IMG/VR virus record: IMGVR_UViG_3300032246_000177
Coordinates: 1-58,486 of that record
Direction: 5' to 3' (one strand)
Length of the DNA: 58,486 nucleotides
DNA from: a virus
Taxonomy: Duplodnaviria; Caudoviricetes
This document shows, piece by piece, positions 24,490 through 39,515 of this stretch. Numbering within the stretch: position 1 is the first letter of the stretch; the number at the start of each line of letters is the position of its first letter. The position numbers and the translations under genes were made by a program. Below the pieces are notes generated by a model. The model did no database searches. It was not told the origin of the DNA and was given only the letters and a program-made list of their open reading frames with translations.

Positions 24490-24785
24490 AAAGCCTCATA
24501 CACATGGGGTCTGCGCCTAGTTTTCTTATGCTTGGTTGGTCGGTGACAAACATAAGCGAATGTCCAAACGTAGACTCCAGTTGTATGGGGCTTTTTCTTT
24601 TGTGGTTTATCCTGGACGGCAGAGAAACACCAGCGGGATAGATACAAGCGCTACTGGGGAAGTAGATGTAAGAGCGCAATATCGGTGGCGAAGCTTAGTG
24701 CCGATTCTACGAACGACTGGCGAGTGCTGTGGCTCCGAAAGGTAACAGTTAAAGGCGCACTGCTAGGGCGTAGTGCGCTCACCAA
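24490..24785 (+). ncRNA. Candidate structured non-coding RNA region (long hairpin plus multi-branch domain)
   Basis: Several nested stems with G-U pairs and a GAAA loop; no convincing ORF. Confidence 0.45.
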
Positions 24786-24828: not shown

Positions 24829-25014
24829 ATGGACTTAAGAGAAGAAATACGAAAGCAAGCCGGGGTAATCCCCGATGCGGTACAAAAAGGATCGGTGCAA
24901 ACTACGATCAGGTGGAAAGAAAGAGCGATGAACGCTTTAAGAACCGCCAATAACCCTAAAGCAACCGAGCGAGACCTGAAAATGGCTTTCGCTGAACTAA
25001 TGAGGAATGTATGA
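24829..25014 (+). CDS. Hypothetical protein
   Basis: ATGA-coupled to the ParB-like gene. Confidence 0.6.
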   Translation: MDLREEIRKQAGVIPDAVQKGSVQTTIRWKERAMNALRTANNPKATERDLKMAFAELMRNV

Positions 25015-25811
25015 AACTATCAGAAATTACACTTGACCCCGAACTTCAATCCCGTGAAACATTAAATCAGGATACGATCAATGATTATTCCGAGAAGATC
25101 AGAGAGGGAGTTAAATTCCCAGCCCTTAAGGTATACCGAGTTGGATCTCGCTATTATCTCGTTGATGGATGGCACCGCTACTTTGCTTATAAGAAGGCTG
25201 GCATAGTTGATGTAGAGGTTGTTGTCATTGAAGGTACTAAGCGTGATGCATTACTGGCATCTACTGGTGTTAACAAAGATCACGGACTTCCACCAAATCG
25301 TGCTGACAGACGCCGTGCAGTATTAAAATTACTGGACGATATGGAGTGGTCTACTTGGAGCAATCGTGAGATCGCAGATCAGACTGGTGTAACCCATCCA
25401 ACCGTGATGGCTATCCGTGAATCTTTAGGTAAGCCACAACCTGAAGTAGTTAAGTTCGAACGAAACGGAAAAGAATTTCAGCAAACAGTTAAGGCAAAAG
25501 ATGACGAGCAAAGAGTACCAACACAACCCGTTGAAGAGGATAAACTCCATGAGTTGGCAGTTGAAATTCAAGCCTTGGCTGAGGAGAACGAGCGACTCGA
25601 AGCCAGAGTTGCGGTCGCTGCTATGGAAGGTACGGCTACAGAGAAAGGGGCTGCTCAAGCTATCATTGAGGAGCTTCAAGCTACGGTTAAGACTCAAGAA
25701 ATTGCGATCCGTTCATTAACCATTAGCCGTGATACTTTCCAAAACAAATGCTCAGAATTAATGAAGCAAGTTACTTACTGGAAAAAGCAAGCACAAAAAA
25801 TGGCAGCGTAA
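25011..25811 (+). CDS. ParB/Srx N-terminal domain protein with HTH and coiled coil
   Basis: YYLVDGWHRYFA and WSNREIADQTGVTHPTV. Confidence 0.8.
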   Translation: MKLSEITLDPELQSRETLNQDTINDYSEKIREGVKFPALKVYRVGSRYYLVDGWHRYFAYKKAGIVDVEVVVIEGTKRDALLASTGVNKDHGLPPNRADRRRAVLKLLDDMEWSTWSNREIADQTGVTHPTVMAIRESLGKPQPEVVKFERNGKEFQQTVKAKDDEQRVPTQPVEEDKLHELAVEIQALAEENERLEARVAVAAMEGTATEKGAAQAIIEELQATVKTQEIAIRSLTISRDTFQNKCSELMKQVTYWKKQAQKMAA

Positions 25812-25863
25812 ATAGGGGTATACCTCTATTAAAAAGCAGTCATAAAAGCAGTAAAGTTTACAT

Positions 25864-25948
25864 GGGGTGAACGCAACAAAGTCGGCTCGGCGACTCTAAA
25901 AAACCTGTACCTTATTTACGGCTTCACATGGCCGTTGTTAGTAACCCC
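25864..25948 (+). ncRNA. Candidate structured RNA with loop-E (GAA/AGUA) motif
   Basis: GGGGT-GAA...AGTA-ACCCC encloses two hairpins. Confidence 0.45.
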
Positions 25949-25986
25949 CCGAATGCAAGCGGTTTCTTGCTAGAACAGGAGTATAA

Positions 25987-27477
25987 GTGTTACAACTGCG
26001 TGAGCATCAATTAGAAGTAGTGCAAAAAATTAAAGAAGGATTTGAGCAAGGCCATACACGGCAATTGCTATATGCTCCAACAGGATTTGGTAAGACAGAA
26101 GTAGCAATGTCTATCATGAAGACTGTTGCAGACGATTACAAAAAGACAGCGATGGTATTAGACCGCATTGTCTTAATCGACCAAACCAGTATGCGTTTAT
26201 CTAAGTATGGTATTGAGCATGGAGTCATGCAAGCCAAACACTGGAGAGAGCGTCCATACGAAAGAATTCAGATCTGCTCTGCTCAAACGCTAGAGCGTAG
26301 ATCATCCTTCCCCGATATTGAGTTGCTAATCATTGACGAATGCCACATTGCTCGTACCAAGACAACTGAATTCATCAAAAACAATCCGCATATCAAAGTT
26401 ATTGGACTGACTGCAACCCCTTTTACCAAGGGGCTTGGAGACATTTATACCCATGTTGTGGGCGCCACACCTACTGGTGATTTGATTGAAAAGGGTTGGC
26501 TTACTAAACTGCGTGTCTTTATTGCTAAAGAAATTGATATGACAGGCGTATCTAAGGTAGCCGGTGAATGGTCTGCTGGTGATACAACCAAGCGTGGTAT
26601 GCAGATTACAGGCGATATTGTTGACGAATGGGAAAAGAAAACGCACGAAGTATTTGGTGGCCCACGAAAGACGATTGTCTTTTGTTCAGGCGTTGAGCAT
26701 GGGCGAGATCTTGTAGAAGAGTTTGCAAAACATGGGTACAACTTTGTTTCTATTTCTTATAAAGAAGAAGACGAATTTAAACGACAGGCTATTGAAGACT
26801 TTAGTCGCCCAGACACACAAATTCATGGACTGATTGCTACTGACATTTTGACTCGTGGATTTGATATATCCGATGTCATGATTGGTGTATCAGCCCGTCC
26901 ATTTTCTAAGTCTTTGTCATCCCATGTCCAGCAACTTGGGCGTGTAATGCGTCCACACGAAGGCAAAGACTTTGCATTGTGGCTTGATCACTCAGGTAAC
27001 TTTTTGCGTTTCCGTGATGATTGGGATCGTCTTTATACCGAAGGTGTGCAGACTTTAGCAGAAGGCGGTTCAGAGAAAGCTAAACGAGAACCGACAGAGA
27101 AAGAAAAGAAAGAAGCTAAGTGTCCAGTTTGCGTGGAGCTATGGGTATCTAAGACTAATACTTGCCATTCTTGCGGCCATGTGAGACCTAGCAGAAGCAT
27201 GGTTGATAGCGTAGCTGGACAACTAGAAGAACTAGAAGCGGCTAATCGTAAGTTGCATAAATCTAATACTGAATTTTATGCGGAGTTAATTTATTACGGT
27301 CGCCTTAAAGGTTACAAAGAAGGCTGGGCCGCATACAAATACAAAGAAAAGTTTGCAGTCTTTCCAGGTGGATTGAATGTATCACCTAAACCACCAACAC
27401 CCGAGACTTTGCGCTGGATTAAGAGTAGGTTTATTGCATACGGTAAGAGTAAAGCACAACAAGGAGTAACGGCATGA
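25987..27477 (+). CDS. Superfamily 2 helicase (DExH) with zinc finger
   Basis: APTGFGKT, DECH, TATP, QQLGRVMR, CPVC...CHSC; AGGAG RBS and GTG start. Confidence 0.9.
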   Translation: MLQLREHQLEVVQKIKEGFEQGHTRQLLYAPTGFGKTEVAMSIMKTVADDYKKTAMVLDRIVLIDQTSMRLSKYGIEHGVMQAKHWRERPYERIQICSAQTLERRSSFPDIELLIIDECHIARTKTTEFIKNNPHIKVIGLTATPFTKGLGDIYTHVVGATPTGDLIEKGWLTKLRVFIAKEIDMTGVSKVAGEWSAGDTTKRGMQITGDIVDEWEKKTHEVFGGPRKTIVFCSGVEHGRDLVEEFAKHGYNFVSISYKEEDEFKRQAIEDFSRPDTQIHGLIATDILTRGFDISDVMIGVSARPFSKSLSSHVQQLGRVMRPHEGKDFALWLDHSGNFLRFRDDWDRLYTEGVQTLAEGGSEKAKREPTEKEKKEAKCPVCVELWVSKTNTCHSCGHVRPSRSMVDSVAGQLEELEAANRKLHKSNTEFYAELIYYGRLKGYKEGWAAYKYKEKFAVFPGGLNVSPKPPTPETLRWIKSRFIAYGKSKAQQGVTA

Positions 27478-27650
27478 CAGAAAAAACACCATACGATGAT
27501 TACGCCATGACTCAGCAAGAAGTTGCTGATGTACTTGGAATGAAAAGATCTTATGTTGGTTTTGTAGAAACTAGAGCTAAAGCTAAGTTAAAAGCTGAAT
27601 TAGAAAAGCGTGGTTATAAATTAGAAGATTTTTTAGGAGGAATGGCATGA
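27474..27650 (+). CDS. Small sigma-region-4-like HTH protein (58 aa, not in ORF track)
   Basis: MTQQEVADVLGMKRSYVGFVETRAKAKLK; ATGA overlaps. Confidence 0.65.
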   Translation: MTEKTPYDDYAMTQQEVADVLGMKRSYVGFVETRAKAKLKAELEKRGYKLEDFLGGMA

Positions 27651-27820
27651 GAGATGGTGGCAAAGGGGATTTGCAGAGACCGTTAGGCGTTCCATTACAA
27701 GAGTTTGATAACAACTGGGATGCCATATTTAAAAGGAATAAGAATGAGTTTCACGATACATCAAGCGAACGGATTGAAAGTGATTCAATGGTTCAAAACA
27801 ATAGACGAACTGATAGCTAG
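27647..27820 (+). CDS. Hypothetical protein (57 aa, not in ORF track)
   Basis: MRDGGKGD..RP...FDNNWDAIF; AGGAGG RBS. Confidence 0.6.
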   Translation: MRDGGKGDLQRPLGVPLQEFDNNWDAIFKRNKNEFHDTSSERIESDSMVQNNRRTDS

Positions 27821-27863
27821 TATGTTGGCAAACCCTAAAGACGTATATCACAGGAATAATTAA
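27744..27863 (+). CDS. Hypothetical protein (39 aa, not in ORF track)
   Basis: AAGGA RBS; TAATG overlap with the methyltransferase. Confidence 0.5.
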   Translation: MSFTIHQANGLKVIQWFKTIDELIASMLANPKDVYHRNN

Positions 27864-29392
27864 TGAACTATTTATCAGTATGCTCAGGAGTTGAGGCAGC
27901 CACGGTAGCATGGCATGACCTTGGCTTCAAGCCAATAGCCTTCTCCGAGATTGAGAAGTTCCCATCGGAAGTTTTAAAGCATCACTACCCAACCATCCCC
28001 AATATGGGGGATATGACTAAATATAAAGAATGGAATTTAAATGAGCCAATTAACCTTTTGGTCGGAGGAACTCCCTGCCAATCCTTCTCCGTTGCTGGAC
28101 TTCGCAAAGGTCTCGAAGACCCAAGGGGAAACCTTGCCCTTACCTATGTTGGAATTCTTGACAAGTTTAGACCCAAGTGGTGCATATGGGAAAACGTGCC
28201 AGGTGTCCTTAGTTCGAATGGAGGACGGGATCTTGGTTCCTTCCTTGGGGCGCTGGCAGAACTCGGCTATGGGTTCGCATATCGGGTGCTTGACGCTCAG
28301 TACTTCGGAGTTCCCCAAAGACGCAGACGTATCTTTGTTGTTGGATGTCTTGGAGACTGGGAATCTCCCGCAAAAGTTTTATTTGAGTCCTCTTGCTTGC
28401 TCAGGGATACTCCGCCGAGCAGACAAAAGAGGAAAGAAGTTACCGGATTTACTTCAAGCAGCTTTGGAGGCTACGGCGAAGGAGTTGGGACAGTCAGAGC
28501 AAGCGGAGGAGATCTTGGAGGAGGATCAGAAACCTTAGTAACCTTTGATCGTCAGTCTAGTGGTGAGTATGGTACTCAGCAAGTTGCTAGCACCGTGGCC
28601 GCAAGAGATTACAAAAGCGCATCTGATCTGATCGCTAAAGTTTATGAGACGCATCCAGCAGACTCCCGAATAAAAGAGATGGGCGATGTATCTCAAACAG
28701 TAACATCACGATGGGGTACAGGCGGTGGTAATGTTCCACTCGTTCAATCTATTGCAGTACAAGATGTATCAGGGCGTGAGAAGAAACAGAATGGCAAAGG
28801 CTGGAGCGAGGATGGAGTTAGCTACACAGTAGATACCCACGCTACACAAGGAGTTGCATATGCTTTCGAACCTGGTATAGCCAAACGTGAAGGCGGTGAT
28901 AGTCGTTTTAGCGAGGAACTTTCTCCCACTTTACGCAGAGAGATGGGCGATAACCAAGTTGCAGTCGCTTACTCATTCAATCACTCACAACAATCTATGA
29001 TGGTTGGCGAAAACCTAGCCAGCCCATTAATGAGCCGTGATTATAAAGATCCACAGGCAGTACTGGAGGCTTATAGTCTGCGTGAAGATGCAAAGGCTAA
29101 TAACTTTAGTGCTACACCATTAGAAGTAACGCCAGCATTACAGGCTTTGCGTCCATCAGTTCAATCGCATCATGCTCAGACTTTTGTATCTCAGTCTATG
29201 GCAGTACGCAGACTTACTCCAGTTGAGTGCGAACGTTTACAGGGATTTCCTGATGGCTATACCAACATACCTTGGCGTGGCAAAGATGAATCACCTGATG
29301 GTCAAAGATATAAAGCGATGGGTAATAGCATGGCAGTACCCGTTATGAAGTGGATTGGTAAACGCATTCAGGAGGTAGACAATGAACTTTGA
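27863..29392 (+). CDS. C5 cytosine DNA methyltransferase with long variable region
   Basis: Motif I SVCSG, GGTPCQSFS, ENV, PQRRRR, RRLTPVECERLQGFP and GNS. Confidence 0.92.
   Translation: MNYLSVCSGVEAATVAWHDLGFKPIAFSEIEKFPSEVLKHHYPTIPNMGDMTKYKEWNLNEPINLLVGGTPCQSFSVAGLRKGLEDPRGNLALTYVGILDKFRPKWCIWENVPGVLSSNGGRDLGSFLGALAELGYGFAYRVLDAQYFGVPQRRRRIFVVGCLGDWESPAKVLFESSCLLRDTPPSRQKRKEVTGFTSSSFGGYGEGVGTVRASGGDLGGGSETLVTFDRQSSGEYGTQQVASTVAARDYKSASDLIAKVYETHPADSRIKEMGDVSQTVTSRWGTGGGNVPLVQSIAVQDVSGREKKQNGKGWSEDGVSYTVDTHATQGVAYAFEPGIAKREGGDSRFSEELSPTLRREMGDNQVAVAYSFNHSQQSMMVGENLASPLMSRDYKDPQAVLEAYSLREDAKANNFSATPLEVTPALQALRPSVQSHHAQTFVSQSMAVRRLTPVECERLQGFPDGYTNIPWRGKDESPDGQRYKAMGNSMAVPVMKWIGKRIQEVDNEL
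28041..28538 (+). CDS. Overprinted ORF inside the methyltransferase (M.EcoHK31I beta-like)
   Basis: 165-aa ORF in the +1 frame; LLDVLET..LPQKFYLS...GILRRADKRGKKLP. Confidence 0.6.
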   Translation: MSQLTFWSEELPANPSPLLDFAKVSKTQGETLPLPMLEFLTSLDPSGAYGKTCQVSLVRMEDGILVPSLGRWQNSAMGSHIGCLTLSTSEFPKDADVSLLLDVLETGNLPQKFYLSPLACSGILRRADKRGKKLPDLLQAALEATAKELGQSEQAEEILEEDQKP

Positions 29393-30185
29393 ATCTTTTG
29401 CACATGAACATGGGCTAATCATTGATAGCCTGGTTCACGACCGATGGACTCGTGTCCCGACAGTTGATAAGCCTAATAAAAAGAATGGTTCTTATATCTA
29501 CCGAGGCGATTCGGGCGCAGTAAAGAACTGGGCAGTGCATGAGAAAGCAATCTATTGGAGTGGTAGCTATATTCCAGAGGCTGAGTATCGAAAGCGTGTG
29601 CAGAAGTCTAAGAAAGATTTGCTTGCTAAACAGAACGATGCAGCTGGTAAAGCAGCATGGATACTTGATCGTTGTTTAAAAGCAACACACCCATACTTAG
29701 CTAAGAAGGGTTTTTCTGATGTCAAAGACTTGGTATGGAATAACTTGCTCGTCATACCTATGCGTATGGAAGGTAGATTGATTGGTTGTCAGTTGATTGA
29801 CCCCGAAGGTTCTAAAAGATTTCTTTCTGGTCAGCGCACCAAAGGCGCATCGTGCGAGATCAACAACAAAGGGCGCATCATTCTTGTAGAAGGCTACGCT
29901 ACCGCCCTATCTATTAGAAAGGCTCTTAAAGCCGTTCGCACTAGATACAATATCCAAGTATGCTTTTCTGCTGGAAACATCGCAGAGGTGGCAAAGAATC
30001 ATCCTGACTGCATGATAGTAGCGGATCACGATCCTGTGGGCATCAAGGCAGCCAAGAAAACAGGAATGCCATACTGGGTTTCTCCTGTAGAGGGTGAAGA
30101 CTTCAATGATTTTGAAACTAGGGTTGGCGCTGAGGCCGCTGGCAAATCGCTTATTGCAATAGGTCGGAAGGTGATTCCTGAGTAA
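29382..30185 (+). CDS. Toprim primase (TraC/P4-alpha-like)
   Basis: HPYLAKKG, VEGYATALS, ADHD and DFND motifs. Confidence 0.85.
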   Translation: MNFESFAHEHGLIIDSLVHDRWTRVPTVDKPNKKNGSYIYRGDSGAVKNWAVHEKAIYWSGSYIPEAEYRKRVQKSKKDLLAKQNDAAGKAAWILDRCLKATHPYLAKKGFSDVKDLVWNNLLVIPMRMEGRLIGCQLIDPEGSKRFLSGQRTKGASCEINNKGRIILVEGYATALSIRKALKAVRTRYNIQVCFSAGNIAEVAKNHPDCMIVADHDPVGIKAAKKTGMPYWVSPVEGEDFNDFETRVGAEAAGKSLIAIGRKVIPE

Positions 30186-30345
30186 ACTCGTTGTTCTTGA
30201 CGAAGACGCAGTTGTTAACTTCCCATAAGTTGTTAACGATTGCGTTTCCGATAAGGAATGATTGACCAGGTTCTCCGACTAACTCCATTACAACTTCAAC
30301 CTTGCCATTCTTCCCATCTTTTAGATAAAGGATTACTGCGTCCAT
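30151..30345 (-). CDS. Hypothetical protein
   Basis: Last ORF of the leftward early operon. Confidence 0.55.
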   Translation of the reverse strand: MDAVILYLKDGKNGKVEVVMELVGEPGQSFLIGNAIVNNLWEVNNCVFVKNNEFTQESPSDLLQ

Positions 30346-30521
30346 ATAAGTCGAATAGCCTTATGCTCTGTAAAATAATCCGGAAAAGCCTCAACAAGTA
30401 TCTTGAGGTTGTCGGGGTCAGCTAAAAGGGCAGCCTTGCCTAATGATACCGCAAAACCGCCCTTGTTTTCTAGCCTATCGACCGCTTGAATGAGTGCGGT
30501 TCGATCTGTTAATACCCTCAT
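30333..30521 (-). CDS. Hypothetical protein
   Basis: GGFAVSLGKAALLADPDN...AFP. Confidence 0.6.
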   Translation of the reverse strand: MRVLTDRTALIQAVDRLENKGGFAVSLGKAALLADPDNLKILVEAFPDYFTEHKAIRLIWTQ

Positions 30522-30578
30522 GCTAGGCACAAGGCTACTGCCATAAGTCCAAATAATACTGCACAAATTAGGTCATCT

Positions 30579-30770
30579 CTAGTCATGTTCAATTCCTATC
30601 CCGTGGGCATGTTCAATCCGCCTAACAAATTCAATAAGCGGACTGATGGTTTTTTGTGAGCAGACATCAAAGTAAATCTGCTCGATCTCTTTGTTTGTCA
30701 AAGGACTGGTAGGCTGGATCTTCTCCAGCTTAGCCAGTTCCTTAAAAAACTCCTTTTCGTTACTCATCAT
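30579..30770 (-). CDS. Hypothetical protein
   Basis: LTNKEI...FVRRIEHAHGI. Confidence 0.55.
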   Translation of the reverse strand: MMSNEKEFFKELAKLEKIQPTSPLTNKEIEQIYFDVCSQKTISPLIEFVRRIEHAHGIGIEHD

Positions 30771-30945
30771 CACCGTCTTCTTCAGCCTCAATGTCAGTGA
30801 CCTCAGTATATTCCCTCAAATCCCCGATGTCATTCTGAAATTCATCATAGGCCGCCCCTTCAGCCTCCTCATAATCGGGAGCGGTAACAAAGTAAGTATT
30901 AGTTCCACTGTAGTGGATCTTTACTGCATATCTTTTCATTCTCAT
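30760..30945 (-). CDS. Acidic hypothetical protein
   Basis: Coupled ORF. Confidence 0.55.
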   Translation of the reverse strand: MRMKRYAVKIHYSGTNTYFVTAPDYEEAEGAAYDEFQNDIGDLREYTEVTDIEAEEDGDDE

Positions 30946-31094
30946 AATTCGTATCCTATTAGTTTTCCTGTATCCACTTTATAGTTGTGGGCTAGTTCAT
31001 CCATGAATCTAGACAGTTCATCTGCCATGTCGCAATCGTCATCTAGAATTTCAAAGATTCGTTCGTAAACATATTTAGTTGATATTGTGCTCAT
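30942..31094 (-). CDS. Hypothetical protein
   Basis: Likely start MSTIST (ATGA overlap). Confidence 0.5.
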   Translation of the reverse strand: MSTISTKYVYERIFEILDDDCDMADELSRFMDELAHNYKVDTGKLIGYEL

Positions 31095-31318
31095 GCTTTC
31101 CCCTCTAGTCGTTGTGATGTCGTTGATGAATTGGTCAAAACCCCATAGCCAGTTTTCTTGCATAACTCCTCCTCTTTTTTTAAAGCATACTGTAAGTTCT
31201 TGTTTAAAATCTCTAGGTCTATACCCTGACATACCCTAATTCTTTCTTGTAGGCAAGCAATAGACTCCTTTACATCCATCAGATGATTTAGCCTTTTGCT
31301 CTTAGCTCTTTTGCTCAT
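31091..31318 (-). CDS. Hypothetical protein
   Basis: AAGGGA RBS. Confidence 0.5.
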   Translation of the reverse strand: MSKRAKSKRLNHLMDVKESIACLQERIRVCQGIDLEILNKNLQYALKKEEELCKKTGYGVLTNSSTTSQRLEGKA

Positions 31319-31368
31319 ATTCCCTTTCTAGTTTTGGTTAAAAAATAGCCTGTTACTCTTAGCAATCC

Positions 31369-31439
31369 TGGTTTTTTGTGAAAAAACCAAACATCACTCC
31401 AAAAAGCCCGTTTTAAAAGGCTTTTCAGAGTTGCGTTTG
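31369..31439 (-). other. Tandem intergenic hairpins (processing site or terminator)
   Basis: Minus strand: CAAAC..ACTCTGAAAAGCC/GGCTTTTTGGAGT..GTTTG, then TGGTTTTTT/AAAAAACCA. Confidence 0.5.
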
Positions 31440-31730
31440 TTAAATCTCGAAAGTTATTGAGTCGCTATCGAATGGAATTTTTTTATCTCCAACGATGACA
31501 AACCAAGAATAGTCTTTCTGAACTACTCCAAAGCGACTGGCTGCGTAGGTGTTTGCAAATTGATTCATGCGTAGTTTTGTAGTTCTTGACTTCCAACCGC
31601 CCGTTTTAAGGGTGATTACATTACCCAATTGAGAGGCAACCTCAGTCCCTCTATAAATACCCACTAAAGCCCCGTCATGATTGCGGATAGTTGTAGTCTC
31701 TACACCTCTGAAAATTTGAGTTTGTGCCAT
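31440..31730 (-). CDS. Hypothetical early protein
   Basis: LKTGGWKSRTTKLRMNQ...QKDYSWFV; start MAQTQ. Confidence 0.65.
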   Translation of the reverse strand: MAQTQIFRGVETTTIRNHDGALVGIYRGTEVASQLGNVITLKTGGWKSRTTKLRMNQFANTYAASRFGVVQKDYSWFVIVGDKKIPFDSDSITFEI

Positions 31731-31732
31731 GT

Positions 31733-31888
31733 TTATGCCTCTTTTGGTTGGTTTGATTGAATAAAAGCCTCGCAACACCGCTTTAGGATGTCGTTTGCCT
31801 CGTCCAAGGGAAGATATCCCTCGTCAAATTGCTCGTAGATGTCATTGACTGAGCAAAATAGATCGTCAATTGTGAATGGTTCGCTCAT
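31733..31888 (-). CDS. Hypothetical protein (51 aa, not in ORF track)
   Basis: GGAGGAAGT-ATG start; MSEPFTIDDLF. Confidence 0.6.
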   Translation of the reverse strand: MSEPFTIDDLFCSVNDIYEQFDEGYLPLDEANDILKRCCEAFIQSNQPKEA

Positions 31889-32046
31889 ACTTCCTCCGAT
31901 TCTTCTACCCATGAACGGATGTCTTCTTGCAGTTGTTCAACTCTGTAAATTCCATTGGCGATATCTTGGAGCATATCTATAAACTCAAAGCGAGAAAAAT
32001 CGCTCCCTAACCATGCCTCTACCTGATTAAATGTAATTGGTTTCAT
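31885..32046 (-). CDS. Hypothetical protein
   Basis: GGAGGAAGT-ATG start; lies just 3' of the hammerhead cleavage site. Confidence 0.65.
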   Translation of the reverse strand: MKPITFNQVEAWLGSDFSRFEFIDMLQDIANGIYRVEQLQEDIRSWVEESEEV

Positions 32047-32063
32047 ACTTCCTCCTTTTGTTT

Positions 32064-32114
32064 GCAAATGACCCCTTTCGGGGTTTCGGGTATTAAACCC
32101 ATCCTCAGATTTGC
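32064..32114 (-). ncRNA. Type I hammerhead ribozyme
   Basis: GCAAAU-CUGAGGA-U-GGGU(UUAAU)ACCC-GAAA-CCCC(GAAA)GGGG-UC^AUUUGC: full catalytic core and three perfect stems. Confidence 0.9.
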
Positions 32115-32287
32115 TTTTTTAACAACTTGTCCCATATAGAATCTAACAAAGCCTCCTTTTCTATTTCGGTAAATGCGTTGGAAACATCCACTCCAAGATT
32201 CAAATAGATGTAGTCATAAGCCTTTGTGAGTGCATCTACTGCAATCTTTTCTACTGCCTCGTTGGTTGGTTCGTGCCAATTTTTCAT
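32105..32287 (-). CDS. Hypothetical protein
   Basis: Its TGA stop is part of the ribozyme CUGA core. Confidence 0.6.
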   Translation of the reverse strand: MKNWHEPTNEAVEKIAVDALTKAYDYIYLNLGVDVSNAFTEIEKEALLDSIWDKLLKKQI

Positions 32288-32508
32288 GCTATCTCCTTGA
32301 TTGGTTCTCTATCCCTTAAACACTCGCCCGAATTGATCTCCTGAACTCGTATATCAGCCCATTGCTCAAACCATTTCGGCTCAAGGTTGTAAGCCTTTGC
32401 GTGTGCCTTAAGTCCCTTGTGGAGCGTTCCTATAGCCTCGTTGTAAGTTGCTCCGATGGCTTGAAAATCAAAACTCCGACTATGTGCCTCTGCGTAGTAG
32501 ATCTTCAT
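32284..32508 (-). CDS. Hypothetical early protein
   Basis: GGAGG RBS; ATGA coupling. Confidence 0.65.
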   Translation of the reverse strand: MKIYYAEAHSRSFDFQAIGATYNEAIGTLHKGLKAHAKAYNLEPKWFEQWADIRVQEINSGECLRDREPIKEIA

Positions 32509-32705
32509 ACCTCCTCCTTATTGAATTGAATCTCTGCCGATACATAAGCCTTGATCATCTCAAGAATTTCTTCCCCATTCTGCCATTCCATGTCGAAGAA
32601 CTGAGAGGCAACATCGCCATTAGTTATCTTCAATTGGTTTTGAACCGATAAGCACATATCGGATAAGGCTTGCTCTGCGATTTGTTGAATTTGTTCTTTG
32701 TTCAT
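32505..32705 (-). CDS. Hypothetical early protein
   Basis: GGAGG RBS; ATGA coupling. Confidence 0.65.
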   Translation of the reverse strand: MNKEQIQQIAEQALSDMCLSVQNQLKITNGDVASQFFDMEWQNGEEILEMIKAYVSAEIQFNKEEV

Positions 32706-32935
32706 ACTTCCTCCGTTGTTAAATCAATCTCAAATGAATCAATCATTTCGCCCCACATACATTCTTCTTCGTTTCCGTCATAAATACCCACAAGCATATC
32801 TATATCAAAACGGTGATCACATCCACCACCGCAAGTAATGACGATGTATTGACCTGTAGGCAATTTTTTAACCCAAGCGGTGCAATTACCCCCTGTGTGT
32901 TCAATGTAAAAACCCTGTTCTTTTAAGTCTTTCAT
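32702..32935 (-). CDS. Hypothetical early protein
   Basis: HTGGNCTA motif. Confidence 0.65.
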   Translation of the reverse strand: MKDLKEQGFYIEHTGGNCTAWVKKLPTGQYIVITCGGGCDHRFDIDMLVGIYDGNEEECMWGEMIDSFEIDLTTEEV

Positions 32936-33231
32936 GCTTGCTCCTTGGTTAGGTTGTTAGCCTTGATATAGGCTAGAACTTCGTTTAAATCGTCCGACTC
33001 CATTAAGTGATCAGAATCACCATACTCACCAACTACTAAAACAAACTGCTTTCCTCCGCACTCCCTTTCTTCGGGGTTTGATTCTTGAAACCAAATGCGG
33101 AGCATCTTCTCTCCTCCTAATGGATAGTCTAAGGATGGGCAAGAGTCGTTATGCCATGAGTTGTCCTCCCAACCTTTGCCCAAATCAGGAAGGTTATAGG
33201 CAAAATCGGGGAATTCGTTTTTATAAGTCAT
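32932..33231 (-). CDS. Hypothetical early protein
   Basis: EFPDF...DNSWHNDSCPS motif. Confidence 0.7.
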   Translation of the reverse strand: MTYKNEFPDFAYNLPDLGKGWEDNSWHNDSCPSLDYPLGGEKMLRIWFQESNPEERECGGKQFVLVVGEYGDSDHLMESDDLNEVLAYIKANNLTKEQA

Positions 33232-33240
33232 ACTTCCTCC

Positions 33241-33552
33241 TTAAATCCACTCGTGGCGAAATTGTTTATTGGGATTAACGGCTCTTAAAATGTTGTGGAC
33301 AATATGAAAACCCATATCCATTCCACATCCACGAACGACAAGCCCGTTGTGTTTGCCTTGCTTAAGTCCTAACGCTTTTCCAACCAACCAATCAAGGTGA
33401 ATGATTCTTCCAGCATCAATCATTTTTATGCTGATCTCTCTTTGCATACCCGATGAAGATACATGGCGGATAACTGTGTAAATGGTATCGCTTTGGATAT
33501 CACGCAAAATGTTATCCAACTCGACTCTTGCTTGCTCTTGTTCTTTTTTCAT
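33241..33552 (-). CDS. Hypothetical early protein
   Basis: RHVSSSGMQR...GCGMDMGFH motif. Confidence 0.7.
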   Translation of the reverse strand: MKKEQEQARVELDNILRDIQSDTIYTVIRHVSSSGMQREISIKMIDAGRIIHLDWLVGKALGLKQGKHNGLVVRGCGMDMGFHIVHNILRAVNPNKQFRHEWI

Positions 33553-33561
33553 AAATTCCTC

Positions 33562-33648
33562 TTATATTTGAATGAATGCAAACACCAAAGCGGTGATAGT
33601 GCATAGGGATACAACTGCTACAAACTGAATAAAATCTTTATCTTCCAT
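33562..33648 (-). CDS. Small single-TM peptide (28 aa, not in ORF track)
   Basis: AGAGGAG RBS; MEDKDFIQFVAVVSLCTITALVFAFIQI. Confidence 0.55.
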   Translation of the reverse strand: MEDKDFIQFVAVVSLCTITALVFAFIQI

Positions 33649-33693
33649 AACTTCTCCTCTTTTGCAATACATTAAAAAAAACTACATATTGAG

Positions 33694-33723
33694 ATACTAC
33701 ACCCAAACCATAGTCGAGTGCAA
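33694..33723 (-). promoter_or_regulatory. Sigma70 promoter of the early operon
   Basis: TTGCAC-18-TAGTAT on the minus strand. Confidence 0.6.
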
Positions 33724-33764
33724 ATCCCGACTAAAGTTTGGGGTTATTACTCAAAGGCCCCAAG

Positions 33765-33929
33765 CTATTCGCCCGACTCCTTTTGCCCAAATAAAGCCTT
33801 GACGATGCAATCAGCCAAGACTAACTGGCTCTTAGTAGGTAACTCAGGGAAGTAGTCAACTACATAGGCATAAGCCATCTTTAAGCGGATCTCTGAGCGG
33901 TCTTCTATTACTGTTGTTTGTGTATCCAA
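33765..33929 (-). CDS. Hypothetical protein (54 aa, TTG start, not in ORF track)
   Basis: GGAG upstream; MDTQTTVIEDRSEIRLK. Confidence 0.4.
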   Translation of the reverse strand: MDTQTTVIEDRSEIRLKMAYAYVVDYFPELPTKSQLVLADCIVKALFGQKESGE

Positions 33930-34234
33930 GATGTTTAATCTCCATTAGGTTTAAAAAGTGCTACATACATAAGACGATCGACTGTCCAAAAACTTAGGGC
34001 AATTCATCCTCTTATCTATAAAGACGAGAGAGAAAGCAAAAAGTGAGGGTCAATTAAAAATATATTTTTTGGCGGTTTTCCAGGATTCCGGAGGTTTGCT
34101 GCCTCAAACGAAAAAGCCCGATAGCCTTATAGGAGAACGGCTTAGATACTTATGCAGTAGGAGAGAACACAGAGCATAGGAGACTTACTTAGGTATGAGA
34201 GTCCACAGAAAAACAAAGCATCGCCTTTTAAGCA

Positions 34235-34265
34235 CTGTATACATATACAGTCTTTATGCTATCAT
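34235..34265 (+). promoter_or_regulatory. LexA box overlapping an extended -10 promoter upstream of terS
   Basis: CTGTATACATATACAG (34235-34250), then TG-C-TATCAT (34257-34265). Confidence 0.7.
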
Positions 34266-34294
34266 TATCCCAATACCAAATAAATACCCAATCA

Positions 34295-35074
34295 ATGAAA
34301 CTTCACAGACTAACGAGAAAACAGATCAGAGAGCAATTGGATCAAGTACCGATCACGGAGATTCTCGGAGTACCGAAACGCAATCTAACCCACAAACAAC
34401 AGGAATTTTGTAAGCATATGGCTAAGGGAGAAACAGGTGCAGAGAGTTATCGTAAGGCTTATGGGAGCGAGGGAGCGAAGGCTAGACCGAAGGTCGCTGG
34501 TAATCGTGCATCTAAGTTGAAAGATCGTGAGGTAATACAGAGGGAGATCGAGGCGATTAGGGTAGCTCTGGAGTTCGAGAAATCACATACCACCCAACAA
34601 TTAAGAGCGTTGGTGGTATCTCAGCTTACAAAAGAGGCGTTAGATCCCGATAACAACGCAAACGCTAGGCTCATCGCTCTGCGTAGCTTGGGAACGGTGG
34701 CTGGTGTCGATGCCTTCCAACACATTAGCCAGTCAACAATCATTAAGGATTCAACAGAGAGCCGAGCCGAACTCATGGACAAACTAAAACAAGTCATGGC
34801 GGACAATATGCGGACGATTGATCATGAGCCTGACGATGCGGACGCTCTGCTCGCTCTGATTGCTGGTGGAAAGCCCGACCCCATCGAAAATTCCGAGTAT
34901 TCCGACCCCACCGCAGCCCCATCCCCGTTTGACCAAAATTCGGGTACCGGTAACTTACATAGTATTCCAGACAAACAATCACAAACAAAACAGGGGCTAC
35001 CCCTCGAAAACGAAAGCCATCTGGTAAATTTACCAGATACAGAAGACACCCCCCTAATGAAATCAAACACTTAG
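34295..35074 (+). CDS. terS: Terminase small subunit
   Basis: LTHKQQEFC...AESYRKAY...ASKL HTH; lies upstream of terL. Confidence 0.8.
   Translation: MKLHRLTRKQIREQLDQVPITEILGVPKRNLTHKQQEFCKHMAKGETGAESYRKAYGSEGAKARPKVAGNRASKLKDREVIQREIEAIRVALEFEKSHTTQQLRALVVSQLTKEALDPDNNANARLIALRSLGTVAGVDAFQHISQSTIIKDSTESRAELMDKLKQVMADNMRTIDHEPDDADALLALIAGGKPDPIENSEYSDPTAAPSPFDQNSGTGNLHSIPDKQSQTKQGLPLENESHLVNLPDTEDTPLMKSNT
35019..35038. promoter_or_regulatory. Perfect 20-bp palindrome (CTG-N10-CAG type)
   Basis: ATCTGGTAAATTTACCAGAT; near-identical copy at 24172-24191. Confidence 0.55.
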
Positions 35075-35184
35075 GGGTGGGGGGTATATGAAAAAAAATT
35101 ACAAAGATATGACGCCCGCCGAACGAGCTGCCTTTAGAAAGCACTTGGTAGGAGTTAAAGCTCACCTTAAAAGGTTAGAAGAAA

Positions 35185-35415
35185 ATGACTGAGCGCCAGG
35201 CTATCGTTTACGAGATGATTGACGAATGGTGGAAGAAGTTCGGCTATGCGCCCTCTATAGATGATGTCATGAACCAAACCAACTTTAAGGGGCGGGGGCA
35301 TACGCACAGGATTATGAAGCAACTATGTGATTTAGGTCTCTGTAAAAGATTACCCAATCGGGCGAGAAGTATTAGACCTACCTATATGCGTGTCCATAAG
35401 TTAGAACGAGAATGA
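35185..35415 (+). CDS. Stand-alone LexA-type DNA-binding domain
   Basis: MTERQ..VYEMI......GYAPSIDDV...LCDLG...R.PNRARSI; no peptidase domain. Confidence 0.8.
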   Translation: MTERQAIVYEMIDEWWKKFGYAPSIDDVMNQTNFKGRGHTHRIMKQLCDLGLCKRLPNRARSIRPTYMRVHKLERE

Positions 35416-36899
35416 ATATAGAAGAGATTATCAAAGGTTTACCGCCAGAAGAACAAGATTCTTTGTTCTCTATGGCGAAAGACTATATGGACTCTTTAGG
35501 TCGGGAAAAGGCTCAAACGGACTTTATGGAGTTTGTCCGTCAGATGTGGCCCGGATTTGTAAACGGCCCTCACCATAAGATTATGGCTAAAAAGTTCCAA
35601 GAGATAGCCGAAGGCAAATGTAAAAGACTTATCATTAATATGCCTCCCCGCCATACCAAAAGTGAGTTTGCATCGTATATGCTTCCCGCATGGTTCTTAG
35701 GAAAGTATCCTAGTAAGAAGATTATTCAATGTTCTAATACCGCAGAATTAGCGGTCGGTTTTGGTAGGAAAGTGAGGAACCTAGTTGGTAGCGATGCATA
35801 CTCAAAGATATTCCCGAATGTCGCTCTTAAGTCTGATAGTAAGGCTGCTGGTCGTTGGGCTACTAATGCCGATGGCGATTACTTCGCTATTGGTGTTGGC
35901 GGTACTGTTACAGGTAAAGGAGCTGATCTGCTCATTATTGACGATCCGCACTCGGAGCAAGAGGCGGCGATAGCAGCCACTAACCCAGAAGTCTACGATA
36001 AGGTTTATGAATGGTACTCATCAGGTCCTCGTCAACGACTTCAACCAGGTGGTGCCATTATTGTCGTTATGACCCGCTGGAGTCTAAGAGACTTAACGGG
36101 CAAGATTTTAAAGTCTTCCATTGAGCGTGACGGGGATATGTGGGATGTGATTAACTTCCCCGCCATTTTGCCAAATGAAGAACCTTTGTGGCCGGCATTC
36201 TGGCCGTTAAAAGAACTTCTTGCCTTAAAAGAAGAACTTCCTGTTTCTAAATGGAATGCCCAGTATCAGCAAAGCCCTACGAGTGAAGAGGGCGCCCTTG
36301 TTAAAAGAGAGTGGTGGAAGCTTTGGGAGTCAGATCGTCCTCCGCAATGTCAATTCATTATCCAATCTTGGGATACCGCCTTTACCAAGAACGAACGGTC
36401 AGACTACTCAGCCTGTACGACTTGGGGTGTCTTTTACAAGGACGAAGATGAAATGCAACCCAATATCATCTTGCTTGATGCTTTTAAAGAAAGACTTGAG
36501 TTTCCAGAATTAAAGGAGCGGGCGATCAGAATGTATAAAGAATGGGAACCCGATGCGTTTATCGTAGAGGCTAAGGCGTCTGGTGCCCCGCTTATATTTG
36601 AATTGCGGCGCATGGGTATCCCTGTATCAGAGTTTACACCTACTCGTGGCAATGATAAGATAGCTCGATTAAATTCGGTAACAGATTTGTTTGCATCCGG
36701 CAAAGTGTGGGCGCCGGGAACAAGATGGGCTGATGAAGTGATGGAAGAGATGGCGGCATTCCCAAACTCGGATCACGATGACTTAGTGGATAGCTCCACA
36801 CAAGCATTGATTCGTTTTCGGAAAGGCGGTTTTATTTCTCTACCTTCAGATGACCAAGACGAACCACAATTTTACAGACGGAAGGCTGCGTACTACTAA
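35412..36899 (+). CDS. terL: Terminase large subunit
   Basis: MPPRHTKS Walker A, LLIIDDP Walker B, SWDTA and HDDLVDS nuclease motifs. Confidence 0.95.
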   Translation: MNIEEIIKGLPPEEQDSLFSMAKDYMDSLGREKAQTDFMEFVRQMWPGFVNGPHHKIMAKKFQEIAEGKCKRLIINMPPRHTKSEFASYMLPAWFLGKYPSKKIIQCSNTAELAVGFGRKVRNLVGSDAYSKIFPNVALKSDSKAAGRWATNADGDYFAIGVGGTVTGKGADLLIIDDPHSEQEAAIAATNPEVYDKVYEWYSSGPRQRLQPGGAIIVVMTRWSLRDLTGKILKSSIERDGDMWDVINFPAILPNEEPLWPAFWPLKELLALKEELPVSKWNAQYQQSPTSEEGALVKREWWKLWESDRPPQCQFIIQSWDTAFTKNERSDYSACTTWGVFYKDEDEMQPNIILLDAFKERLEFPELKERAIRMYKEWEPDAFIVEAKASGAPLIFELRRMGIPVSEFTPTRGNDKIARLNSVTDLFASGKVWAPGTRWADEVMEEMAAFPNSDHDDLVDSSTQALIRFRKGGFISLPSDDQDEPQFYRRKAAYY

Positions 36900-37054
36900 T
36901 GGTTGAATTACGCAAAGGCTTTAAAACTGAAGAAGAAGCAATAGCTTTTAAAAAAACTATTGTGGGAGATTACGAAATTGTTGGTCTATATGAGGGAATC
37001 TTCCCAGGACCAGCATTTGCATACTTTTTAAGAGAGATAGAACATGCCAATTGA
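36899..37054 (+). CDS. Hypothetical protein (51 aa, not in ORF track)
   Basis: TAATG coupling; MVELRKGFKTEEEAIAF. Confidence 0.5.
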   Translation: MVELRKGFKTEEEAIAFKKTIVGDYEIVGLYEGIFPGPAFAYFLREIEHAN

Positions 37055-39515
37055 TAAAGCACTATACCAAGCCCCAGTCGGAATCGACACACTGGCAGAA
37101 CAAGAACCTGAGATGGAGATCGAAGTAGTTGATCCAGAATCAGTAACGATTGGTATAGATGGACTCGAAATTGAAATCGAGCCAACTGAAGAGGGCGAAG
37201 ATGACTTTGATGCCAACTTAGCGGAATACATGAGCGAAGGCGATTTATCTTCTATTACTGGAGATTTAATCGGCGATTTTGATAATGACATCTCTTCCCG
37301 CAAAGACTGGATTCAAACCTATGTAGATGGATTAGAACTCTTGGGTCTGAAGATCGAAGAGCGAACTGAACCATGGGAAGGTGCTTGTGGAGTATTCCAT
37401 CCATTGCTATCAGAAGCAGTAGTCAAGTTCCAAGCTGAAACCATGATGTCTACTTTCCCAGCTTCTGGGCCAGTAAAGACACAGATCATTGGTAAAGAAA
37501 CACCAGAAAAGAAACAAGCATCCGAAAGAGTAACGGCTGATATGAACTATCAGTTGACAGATGTTATGCAAGAATATCGCCCAGAGCATGAAAGAATGTT
37601 ATGGAGTTTAGGTATTGCTGGTAACGCATTTAAGAAGGTTTACTTTGATCCTTCTTTAAATCGTCAAGTGTCTATGTTTGTTCCTGCCGAAGACATAGTC
37701 GTTCCTTACGGCGCTTCAAACCTAGAGTCAGCAGATCGTGTAACCCATGTAATGCGCAAGACTGAAAACGATTTACTCCGCCTTCAGCATTCGGGTTTCT
37801 ACCGAGATATAGACTTAGGTACTCCTGATAATGTCTTAGACGAAGTAGAAAAGAAAATTGCAGAGAAACTTGGCTTTAGAGCTACCTCTGATGATCGTTA
37901 TAAAGTTTTAGAAATGCACGTTAACCTAGACTTACCGGGTTACGAGCATACCGATGATGAAGGAGAGCCAACAGGTATTGCTCTTCCTTATGTTGTAACA
38001 ATTGAAAAAGGATCAAACACTGTATTAGCGATCCGCAGAAATTGGAACCCAGAAGATGAAACTCATAAAAAGCGTCAGCACTTTGTTCACTACGGATACA
38101 TTCCGGGCTTTGGTTTCTATTGTTTCGGTCTCATCCATCTTATCGGCGCTTTTGCTAAGTCTGGTACTTCTATACTACGCCAGCTTGTCGACGCTGGATC
38201 TCTCTCAAACTTGCCGGGTGGCTTTAAGACCCGTGGCTTGCGAGTTAAAGGCGACGACACACCGATAGCTCCAGGTGAATTCCGTGATGTAGACGTTCCA
38301 TCAGGCACGATGAAAGACAACATCATGCCATTGCCATACAAAGAACCTTCAATGGTTCTGGCTGGTTTGTTAGATAAGATCGTTGACGAAGGTCGTCGCT
38401 TTGCTTCTGCTGCCGATATGAAGGTTGCAGATATGTCAGGGAATACCCCAGTAGGGACAACCCTAGCAATCTTGGAAAGAACGCTCAAAGTAATGTCTGC
38501 GGTACAAGCCCGTATTCATTATTCAATGAAGCAAGAGTTCAAGCTACTCAAGAAGATTATTGCTGACTACACTCCAGAAGACTATAGCTACGAGCCGTCT
38601 GAAGGTCGCCGTTCTGCCAAGAAGTCTGACTATGATGATGTAGATGTCATTCCAGTAAGCGATCCTAATGCAGCAACAATGAGCCAGAAGATTATGCAGT
38701 ATCAAGCTGCCCTTCAGTTAGCTCAGTCAGCGCCACAACTTTATAACTTGCCACTACTGCACCGTCAGATGCTTGATGTTCTTGGATTAAAGGATGCTAA
38801 CAAGTTAGTACCAATGCCAGATGACCAGAAACCAAGAGATCCAATCTCTGAGAATATGGCTGCATTTAAGATGGAACCATTGAAGGCATTTATTTATCAA
38901 GATCATCAGGCGCATATTACTGTCCATATGGCAGCAATGCAAGATCCTAAGATTATGCAGACGATGGGTCAAAACCCTAATGCTCAAATGATCATGGGCG
39001 CAATGATGTCACATATCCAAGAACACGTTGGATACGAATACCGTCGCCTGATGGAAGAGATGATTGGTGTTCCAATCCCTTATTCAGAAGAAGACGACTA
39101 CGAAGTACCAGAAGAAGTTGAATTACAGATTGCTCGCTTGGCAGCTCCTGCAGCTCAGAAGTTACTGCAACAAAGCCAATCACAAGTTGCACAGCAACAA
39201 GCACAACAGCAAGCGCAAGATCCGTTATTGCAGATCCAGCAAGCTGAATTGCAAATCAAGCAACAAGAAGCACAAACATCTCAACAAAAAGTTCAGATTG
39301 ATGCACAAGCTAAAGCAGAACAAATGCAAATTGAGCGGGAACGTATAGCTTCTCAAGAGCGTATTGCTGCTATGCAGAATCAAGCTAAAGTTGAAAAAGA
39401 TCGTACTCAACTCTCTATTCAAAGTGAGATTGAACATGCGAAGCTTGCGGTGGACATCGGCAAGCACAGTCAACAGATGTCCAAAGAGAAGGAGCAACCA
39501 ACGAAAGGTAGTTAA
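37044..39515 (+). CDS. Portal protein (P22-like, with Gln-rich barrel)
   Basis: 823 aa directly after terL; HPLLSEAVVKFQA motif; C-terminal Q-rich coiled coil. Confidence 0.88.
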   Translation: MPIDKALYQAPVGIDTLAEQEPEMEIEVVDPESVTIGIDGLEIEIEPTEEGEDDFDANLAEYMSEGDLSSITGDLIGDFDNDISSRKDWIQTYVDGLELLGLKIEERTEPWEGACGVFHPLLSEAVVKFQAETMMSTFPASGPVKTQIIGKETPEKKQASERVTADMNYQLTDVMQEYRPEHERMLWSLGIAGNAFKKVYFDPSLNRQVSMFVPAEDIVVPYGASNLESADRVTHVMRKTENDLLRLQHSGFYRDIDLGTPDNVLDEVEKKIAEKLGFRATSDDRYKVLEMHVNLDLPGYEHTDDEGEPTGIALPYVVTIEKGSNTVLAIRRNWNPEDETHKKRQHFVHYGYIPGFGFYCFGLIHLIGAFAKSGTSILRQLVDAGSLSNLPGGFKTRGLRVKGDDTPIAPGEFRDVDVPSGTMKDNIMPLPYKEPSMVLAGLLDKIVDEGRRFASAADMKVADMSGNTPVGTTLAILERTLKVMSAVQARIHYSMKQEFKLLKKIIADYTPEDYSYEPSEGRRSAKKSDYDDVDVIPVSDPNAATMSQKIMQYQAALQLAQSAPQLYNLPLLHRQMLDVLGLKDANKLVPMPDDQKPRDPISENMAAFKMEPLKAFIYQDHQAHITVHMAAMQDPKIMQTMGQNPNAQMIMGAMMSHIQEHVGYEYRRLMEEMIGVPIPYSEEDDYEVPEEVELQIARLAAPAAQKLLQQSQSQVAQQQAQQQAQDPLLQIQQAELQIKQQEAQTSQQKVQIDAQAKAEQMQIERERIASQERIAAMQNQAKVEKDRTQLSIQSEIEHAKLAVDIGKHSQQMSKEKEQPTKGS

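Follow-up and report, generated by a model that had tools for sequence, protein, structure and literature searches.

A type I hammerhead ribozyme between small genes of a tailed phage and its probable role in separating cistrons

We analyzed a 58,486-nucleotide (nt) stretch of DNA from an uncultured tailed phage (Caudoviricetes; IMG/VR virus record IMGVR_UViG_3300032246_000177, estimated to be 93% complete), hereafter the window, and identified a 51-nt type I hammerhead ribozyme at positions 32064–32114 of its minus strand, the sense strand of a cluster of small phage genes. The motif is statistically significant, is conserved with covariation, and has a fixed placement between the stop codon of one gene and the Shine-Dalgarno (SD) site and start codon of the next. 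We consider it likely that the element is functional and acts as a self-cleaving separator of a polycistronic message, with cleavage, the chemistry of the ends and the effects on stability and expression inferred from these features.

The hammerhead motif and its predicted fold

Read on the minus strand from 32114 to 32064, the element is GCAAAU-CUGAGGA-U-GGGU-UUAAU-ACCC-GAA-ACCCC-GAAA-GGGGU-C-AUUUGC. Direct reading confirmed, base by base, the stems, the core, the extra U and the GUC triplet that an initial annotation, made from the sequence alone, had assigned to it. With loops closing stems II and III and stem I left open, the arrangement is that of type I. The parts, read directly from the sequence unless another basis is given, are as follows.

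32064–32114, minus strand: the whole type I hammerhead motif; also the sole match to our descriptor in the window and a 48.5-bit match to covariance model R1 over 32061–32117
32109–32114, minus strand: 5′ strand of stem I, GCAAAU, which doubles as the last sense codons of the upstream open reading frame (ORF)
32102–32108, minus strand: core C3–A9, CUGAGGA, with G at N7; U4-G5-A6 at 32107–32105 is the UGA stop codon of ORF 32287–32105
32101–32101, minus strand: the extra U between A9 and G10.1
32088–32100, minus strand: stem II, GGGU (32100–32097) paired with ACCC (32091–32088), and its loop UUAAU (32096–32092)
32085–32087, minus strand: core G12 A13 A14 (GAA), invariant in alignments A1 and A2
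32071–32084, minus strand: stem III, ACCCC/GGGGU, including A15.1-U16.1, with a GAAA loop
32069–32070, minus strand: predicted cleavage site, after C17 (32070) and before A1.1 (32069), from the hammerhead consensus applied to the sequence
32064–32069, minus strand: 3′ strand of stem I, AUUUGC, supported also by covariation; once cut, the downstream RNA would begin with it

The conserved core (C3 U4 G5 A6 N7 G8 A9 … G12 A13 A14) is complete, with one extra U after A9. Stem I has 6 base pairs (bp), stem II has 4 bp beginning with a G-C pair (G10.1-C11.1), and stem III has 5 bp beginning with an A-U pair (A15.1-U16.1). Nucleotide 17, which must not be G, is C at 32070. Applied to the window, the consensus places the predicted cut between 32070 and 32069, where it had been placed before. 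The minimum-energy fold of 32130–32050 is a three-way junction with all three stems, and the SD site is unpaired in it. Fast cleavage by hammerheads at physiological Mg2+ depends on a tertiary contact between stem I and loop II. The window element has its family's conserved A 5′ of stem I, A-rich 3′ flank and U-N-A-N-U/G loop II, residues that may form such a contact. A possible extension of stem I in the window (UUGUU/AACAA, which would leave an A6 bulge) was dropped from the motif, as it is not conserved in relatives.

The descriptor for type I hammerheads specified CUGANGA, zero or one inserted base, stem II, GAA, a stem III closed by an A-U pair, a base other than G at position 17, and stem I. 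Applied to both strands of the window, it matched exactly one site, the element at 32064–32114. Dinucleotide-preserving shuffles of the window contained a match in 3/300 cases at the loosest setting, in 1/300 at the middle setting and in 0/300 at the observed stem lengths. Since such a rate would still yield false positives over a very large scan, the case for a hammerhead rests on conservation. We also built a covariance model (R1) from 29 phage hammerheads of equal length, none of them from the clade of the window, whose members begin with GCAA. R1 aligned to the window element over its full length (1–58 of 58) with 48.5 bits and an E-value of ~7e-11 on a rough calibration. The next best site in the window scored 10.5 bits, and the element was the sole R1 match below E = 3.

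Conservation in related phages and across viral contigs

A megablast search of positions 30000–35000 against GenBank phages gave no match. Related viral contigs, collected by means of three neighboring proteins, comprised 27 loci on 25 distinct contigs (loci and contigs are cited below by L numbers). In 15 of these loci, on 13 of the 25 distinct contigs, the descriptor matched a hammerhead on the same strand. Stem I occurs as GCAAAU/AUUUGC, GCAAGU/AUUUGC, GGCUAA/UUAGUC and CCUAA/UUAGG; stem II shows the compensatory change between GGGU/ACCC and GGCU/AGCC; and stem III occurs as ACCCC/GGGGU, AUCCC/GGGAU, ACUGUC/GAUAGU and other variants. The core is fixed across these relatives while position 7 takes all four bases. 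The initial annotation had named a lack of core conservation in relatives as part of the grounds for abandoning the ribozyme; the core is retained, and compensatory changes are found in all three stems.

In a model-guided alignment of the window clade (A3; 10 distinct sequences), 99.3% of cells are paired and 12 of 16 pairs are changed on both sides. None of 500 shuffles reached this level, and slid controls gave 23–44% paired. Both-side changes occur at five of the six pairs of stem III in the clade. A MAFFT alignment of the same clade put gaps wrongly in stem III and was excluded from the pair counts, for which A3 was used instead. The extra U is present in L018 and absent from the near-identical L020. 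Four of five related records that were searched carry one hammerhead copy each.

We then searched viral contigs for a wider family with a pattern covering only the core and stem II (CTGANGA, 0–1 N, GGST, 4–6 N, ASCC, GAAA). An earlier pattern with exact stems had given 0 matches in viral contigs; it was too specific and was replaced. The new pattern occurred in at least 127 stretches, with 130 core matches, and all wide-family counts given here refer to the matches listed. Type I stems I and III are present in 117 of the 130, nine fit type III (two of these fit both), and six fit neither. When the flanks were shuffled, a mean of 3.6/130 passed, with a maximum of 10. This comparison, 117/130 against 3.6, is unbiased evidence that the stems are real. 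Across the wide family, 10 of 16 pairs are changed on both sides.

The 112 non-identical type I members share a number of traits. Stem I is exactly 6 bp long in 106 and directly preceded by an A in 105; on its 3′ side, the ribozyme is followed by AA in 73 and by AT in 20. The base at N7 is T in 75 members, C in 17, A in 15 and G in 5, and position 17 is C in 97 and A in 15. Most members (92) have no insertion after A9, 17 have a U, two an A and one a G. Loop II follows the pattern U-N-A-N-U/G, to which UUAAU in the window conforms. An ORF of at least 40 amino acids (aa) starts within 80 nt 3′ of the ribozyme in 97 of 107 members, at a median distance of 19 nt (interquartile range 16–22).

The same pattern gave at least 120 matches in a cellular genome collection, nine of them with type I stems and a stem I of at least 5 bp. 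By our own estimate, ~100 matches are expected by chance in these 596 Gb of cellular genomes, and we read the rest of the cellular matches as chance. Since cellular matches are near chance level, the type I clade is essentially virus-borne, and we draw no conclusion about host range from the cellular scan. Several viral contigs (L043/L044, L056/L057, L065/L066, L074/L075, L101/L102 and L151) carry two clade members on the same strand, 0.1–2 kb apart. These paired copies resemble the clustered arrangement of prophage hammerheads, unlike the single copy in the lineage of the window.

Gene context, the proposed role and its alternatives

The ribozyme lies in a minus-strand run of ~14 small ORFs (33929–30151), nearly all of them without a known family and most overlapping their neighbors by ATGA. 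On the plus strand, the run is flanked on one side by a replication module (ParB-like protein, helicase, methyltransferase, primase; 25011–30185) and on the other by a packaging module (small and large terminase subunits, portal; 34256–39515). Within the packed part of the run, no short intergenic gap occurs other than the 58-nt spacer in which the ribozyme lies. The label "early operon" that had been given to this run is plausible. The features next to the ribozyme are these.

32105–32287, minus strand: upstream ORF of 60 aa, without a known family, ending in the core UGA; homologs with 90% identity occupy the same position in L011/L012
32044–32063, minus strand: A-rich flank, SD site AAGGAGG (32057–32051) and start codon ATG (32046–32044) of a 53-aa ORF, by direct reading
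31440–32046, minus strand: three ORFs that cleavage would release, of 53 aa (32046–31885), 59 aa (31912–31733) and 97 aa (31733–31440; Pfam PF23790 Kyano_Gp96, phrog_554), annotated with PHROGs and Pfam
31396–31431, minus strand: terminator-like 14-bp hairpin just 3′ of the 97-aa gene, from a pattern scan; a putative terminator

The flank, the SD site and the spacing to the ATG (17–18 nt) recur in relatives with different downstream genes.

We propose that, once the polycistronic RNA is made, the 51-nt motif would fold as a three-way junction and cut itself after C17 (32070/32069). The upstream RNA would keep a complete ORF with its stop codon and end in two hairpins with a 2′,3′-cyclic phosphate; almost the entire ribozyme would stay on this RNA, as the open stem is stem I. 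The downstream RNA would begin with a 5′-OH by virtue of hammerhead chemistry, provided that the element cleaves, followed by a short unstructured leader with a strong SD site. Direct reading bears out the earlier figure of about 23 nt for this leader, which runs from the predicted cut to the ATG at 32046. This RNA would encode the 53-aa, 59-aa and 97-aa Kyano_Gp96-like proteins and probably end at the hairpin 31431–31396. The released mRNA would thus be ~670 nt long, extending from the cut to the terminator-like hairpin. The ribozyme would thus be a protein-independent separator of cistrons, uncoupling the stability and translation of the downstream block from the upstream genes. The type I topology suits such a role.

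The position of the upstream stop codon bears on whether the ribozyme could also respond to translation. Reading of the ORFs confirmed that the core UGA (32107–32105) is the stop codon of the 60-aa ORF 32287–32105, as had been claimed. The core UGA also terminates the upstream ORF in 9 of 12 loci of relatives examined and, with the window counted, does so in three stem I types and behind no fewer than three distinct upstream genes. Within one ribozyme sub-clade, the stop is the core UGA in L018/L019 and a TAA just before stem I in L020/L021. L026 has two candidate upstream ORFs, and its stop is accordingly either at the 5′ edge of stem I or inside this stem. The positions of the upstream stop among the 100 scorable members listed are as follows.

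Core UGA: 25/100
Overlapping the 5′ strand of stem I: 26/100
Ending 0–3 nt before stem I: 23/100
Later inside the ribozyme, mostly in loop II: 14/100
4–60 nt upstream of stem I: 12/100

Taken together, 74 of the 100 have their stop in the interval from 3 nt before stem I to the core UGA. The three upstream reading frames are used 50, 32 and 18 times, and the most-used is the frame with its stop at −8 or at the core UGA. In 103 of the 112 members, two or three frames meet a stop codon within the 5′ half of the ribozyme (UAA where stem I ends, UGA in the core, U-A/G-A in loop II), and therefore any ORF entering the ribozyme soon ends. The regular layout is a stop codon, the ribozyme, ~19 nt with an SD site, and a start codon. 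A stop within the core is common but optional, because close relatives place it inside or outside the core, and the spread of stop positions is what tight gene packing alone would give.

The initial annotation had gone further, proposing that terminating ribosomes occlude the fold and so link translation to self-cleavage. The overlap of stop codon and core and the geometry are real; the regulatory use is not supported: the data fit plain compaction as well, and the optional overlap within one sub-clade argues against a dedicated mechanism. In such a scheme, ribosomes finishing the upstream ORF would keep the hammerhead unfolded, and cleavage and the fate of the downstream three-gene mRNA would report on upstream translation. 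The footprint of a bacterial ribosome with the UGA (32107–32105) in its A site would extend over the core, stem I and the 5′ strand of stem II. The use of the core UGA as a stop across three stem I types (the window and 9/12 loci of relatives) and in 25/100 listed members would also fit, as would the excess of the frame ending at −8 or at the core UGA (50/100 against 32 and 18). These frame counts, however, come from related, non-independent sequences. Stops are scattered over many positions in all three frames, and the overlap is optional even within one sub-clade (L018/L019 against L020/L021). Neighbors in the cluster overlap by ATGA, so compaction alone predicts a stop flush with the ribozyme or inside it. 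Moreover, occlusion by a ribosome is transient and a single cleavage suffices, so that gating would be expected to delay cleavage rather than prevent it. We consider translational gating unlikely. Its stronger form strikes us as more doubtful still: that selection favors a stop lying within the ribozyme's 5′ half or abutting it, that terminating ribosomes gate folding and cleavage, and that release of the downstream 5′-OH mRNA is timed by, or proportional to, upstream translation. If this were true, the element would be a natural ribosome-controlled ribozyme, and the gated block here ends in a Kyano_Gp96-like gene. Literature listings gave no account of stop-codon overlap or translational control in phage hammerheads; the term "stop codon" is absent from the article text of PMC3088659.

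A number of observations weigh against a functional hammerhead that separates cistrons. The Rfam hammerhead scan suggested in the initial annotation was negative for the whole window at the gathering score, for 31950–32250 at E ≤ 10 and for 30100–34300 at E ≤ 5; Rfam 15 has no hammerhead match on the window, and no other ribozyme either. Nine loci of relatives are likewise without an Rfam hammerhead at the gathering score. Typical family members score weakly, with 19–24 bits for RAGATH-1-hammerhead (gathering score 56.3) and 16–21 bits for Hammerhead_3 (48.5). The extra U lies in the catalytic core, and its tolerance is argued from another sequence context. The fold energy of 32130–32050 is unexceptional (z = −1.41). 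Members of alignments A2 and A3 were chosen by a descriptor or model that demands pairing, so that the percentage of paired cells is partly built in, the unbiased figure being 117/130 against 3.6. A related phage record that is 100% complete has no R1 match, and the ribozyme is directly upstream in 0/9 loci found as homologs of the downstream 53-aa gene. We read the missing Rfam match as a gap in the curated models and, because the scores stay under the gathering thresholds, give the class of the ribozyme and no Rfam accession. The complete relative without an R1 match and the 53-aa homologs without a ribozyme directly upstream indicate that the element is dispensable, and the 0/9 count that it is not tied to the 53-aa gene; L014 nonetheless has a hammerhead followed by a homolog of this gene. 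Among the loci of the Kyano_Gp96-like protein (L013–L028), a hammerhead lies upstream in 12/16, with 0–2 small genes between, and directly upstream in L017, L020, L021 and L026. This suggests a loose association of the ribozyme with the Kyano_Gp96-like gene in the lineage of the window.

How much these points count depends on what else the element could be. A chance resemblance to the hammerhead consensus, without biological meaning, might be suspected of any short motif, as scans of many windows give chance matches (~0.01 loose matches per shuffled window). We give this virtually no credence: 13/25 related contigs retain the element, and all three stems show compensatory changes; the independent model R1 scores it at 48.5 bits, and the window shares the family's 6-bp stem I (106/112 listed), A 5′ of stem I (105/112), A-rich 3′ flank and start codon ~19 nt downstream. 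Alternatively, the extra U might have disabled catalysis, leaving a relic whose two GC-rich hairpins stabilize the mRNA, cause pausing or act like a terminator. The insertion in the catalytic core, the lack of an Rfam match, and the nature of stem III as a GC-rich hairpin with a GNRA loop would all fit. However, the same insertion occurs in 17 of the 112 listed members, with otherwise intact cores, and comes and goes among near-identical relatives, and the remaining core residues of the window element are all consensus. Stem III is not followed by a U-tract (UCAUUUGC follows), and the terminator scan did not flag it. The (+) hammerhead of CChMVd has an extra A between A9 and G10.1, where a change from A to U raised trans-cleavage 3–4 fold while C or G was harmful (De la Pena & Flores 2001, as cited in the review PMC3705267). 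As U at that place favored cleavage in this one tested precedent, and the family prefers U, the extra U is no reason to doubt activity; by analogy, the position is a tolerated one. An inactive relic therefore appears highly improbable.

The hammerhead with its A-rich flank and SD site could also be a portable linker at which small genes recombine, a conserved junction that persists partly for that reason, whether it cleaves or not. The same ribozyme is joined on its upstream side to the 60-aa ORF (the window, L011) or to a homolog of the window's 74-aa ORF (L013–L016, L018), and it precedes ORFs of 53, 64, 93, 55 or 96–98 aa in different relatives. Compared with L014, the window has an additional gene, the 60-aa ORF, whose insertion point coincides with the 5′ edge of stem I. 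Prophage hammerheads, too, do not always flank the same genes (Perreault et al., 2011, PMC3088659). Mosaic joints at gene boundaries are nevertheless general in phages and need no ribozyme, and recombination leaves the conservation of the catalytic core and the covarying stems unexplained. We regard a contribution of gene shuffling as unlikely; it is compatible with cistron separation, and the two are not mutually exclusive.

Other features of the region concern the limits of the transcription unit. In a sigma-70 scan, the minus strand showed no promoter upstream of the cluster, and promoter-like sites were fewer than in shuffles. A 198-aa protein encoded at 22927–23523 (minus strand) matches a family of phage RNA polymerase sigma factors (phrog_351, E 9.7e-16). 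With such a factor, the phage may control promoter recognition itself, and this could account for the missing sigma-70-like promoter. At 31319–31445 (minus strand) there are two successive hairpins, a 14-bp stem (31431–31396) with the A/U-rich base typical of bidirectional terminators and then GGUUUUUU-CAC-AAAAAACC; the fold of 31445–31319 has z = −2.56. These hairpins after the Kyano_Gp96-like gene probably mark the 3′ end of the ribozyme-bearing unit. The only long gap in the cluster (33553–33764, minus strand; 212 nt) contains a long imperfect hairpin, a short spacer and a U8 run, then an SD site and a 36-aa ORF (33672–33562). This gap may function as an attenuator or internal terminator behind the first of the clustered genes. 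Elsewhere, Rfam RF02932, Betaproteobacteria-1 RNA, matches 24605–24725 (plus strand) with 88.5 bits against a gathering score of 49.4, ~290 nt upstream of the ParB-like gene (25011–25811). A phage-borne copy of this motif, whose function is unknown, hints at a betaproteobacterial host.

Relation to known hammerheads

The discovery is modest, in that both the kind of element and the proposed role have been in print since 2011. Hammerheads flanking prophage genes cleave in vitro and in E. coli, and it was proposed then that they process long phage transcripts into mRNAs of single-gene or operon length (Perreault et al., 2011, PMC3088659), a proposal repeated in a later review (PMC6765202). The biological role of the thousands of phage and prophage hammerheads is still described as open in the reviews PMC6155905 and PMC6765202. 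The window adds a clear example with one copy of the ribozyme and a well-delimited predicted product, an mRNA of ~670 nt carrying three genes. The type I clade of this ribozyme is large (at least 117 members), virus-borne and beyond the reach of the curated Rfam models, and the extra U recurs within it; annotation pipelines based on Rfam will miss these elements. The overlap with the stop codon is a common, optional habit of the family rather than a special switch. The layout of stop codon, ribozyme, ~19 nt and start codon lends itself to simple tests of whether such ribozymes determine relative mRNA stability or react to translation.

The hammerheads of prophages and phages described by Perreault et al. 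(2011, PMC3088659) resemble the window element in their consensus core and their position between co-directional small phage genes of varying identity. One of them, from phage HF2, likewise lies near a start codon, 13 nt upstream of that of a helicase. In contrast to the single copy per record seen here, theirs are often clustered, with two or three ribozymes (PMC3088659). The type I hammerheads of bacterial and phage DNA (PMC6155905, PMC13725137) are also intergenic, with a helix III longer than in eukaryotic repeat hammerheads and with small, non-conserved flanking ORFs. The window clade differs in its fixed 6-bp open stem I with conserved flanking A residues, its GGSU/ASCC stem II and its 5-nt U-N-A-N-U/G loop, a sub-type for which we found no description in the consulted portions of these two sources.

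The viroid CChMVd (+) hammerhead is similar in having a single nucleotide inserted at the same place in the core, where U is compatible with, and even favorable to, cleavage in vitro (PMC3705267). It is a type III viroid ribozyme with an inserted A, whereas the window ribozyme is DNA-encoded, from a phage and of type I; its inserted base is U, and members of its clade differ in whether they have the insertion.

Among curated families, RF03152 (RAGATH-1-hammerhead) is type I-like with an open stem I, and its core and stem III align to typical family members. The upstream hairpin of that model has no counterpart here, and the scores are far under the threshold. Clan CL00010 also includes Hammerhead_1, Hammerhead_II, HH9 and HH10, besides Hammerhead_3. 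Synthetic ribozyme insulators such as RiboJ sit between promoter, cistrons and ribosome-binding site. Self-cleavage of such insulators gives the downstream gene a defined short 5′-OH leader that is independent of the upstream sequence, and cleavage of the window element would do the same. Unlike them, the window element is natural, is of type I, and abuts or overlaps the upstream stop codon.

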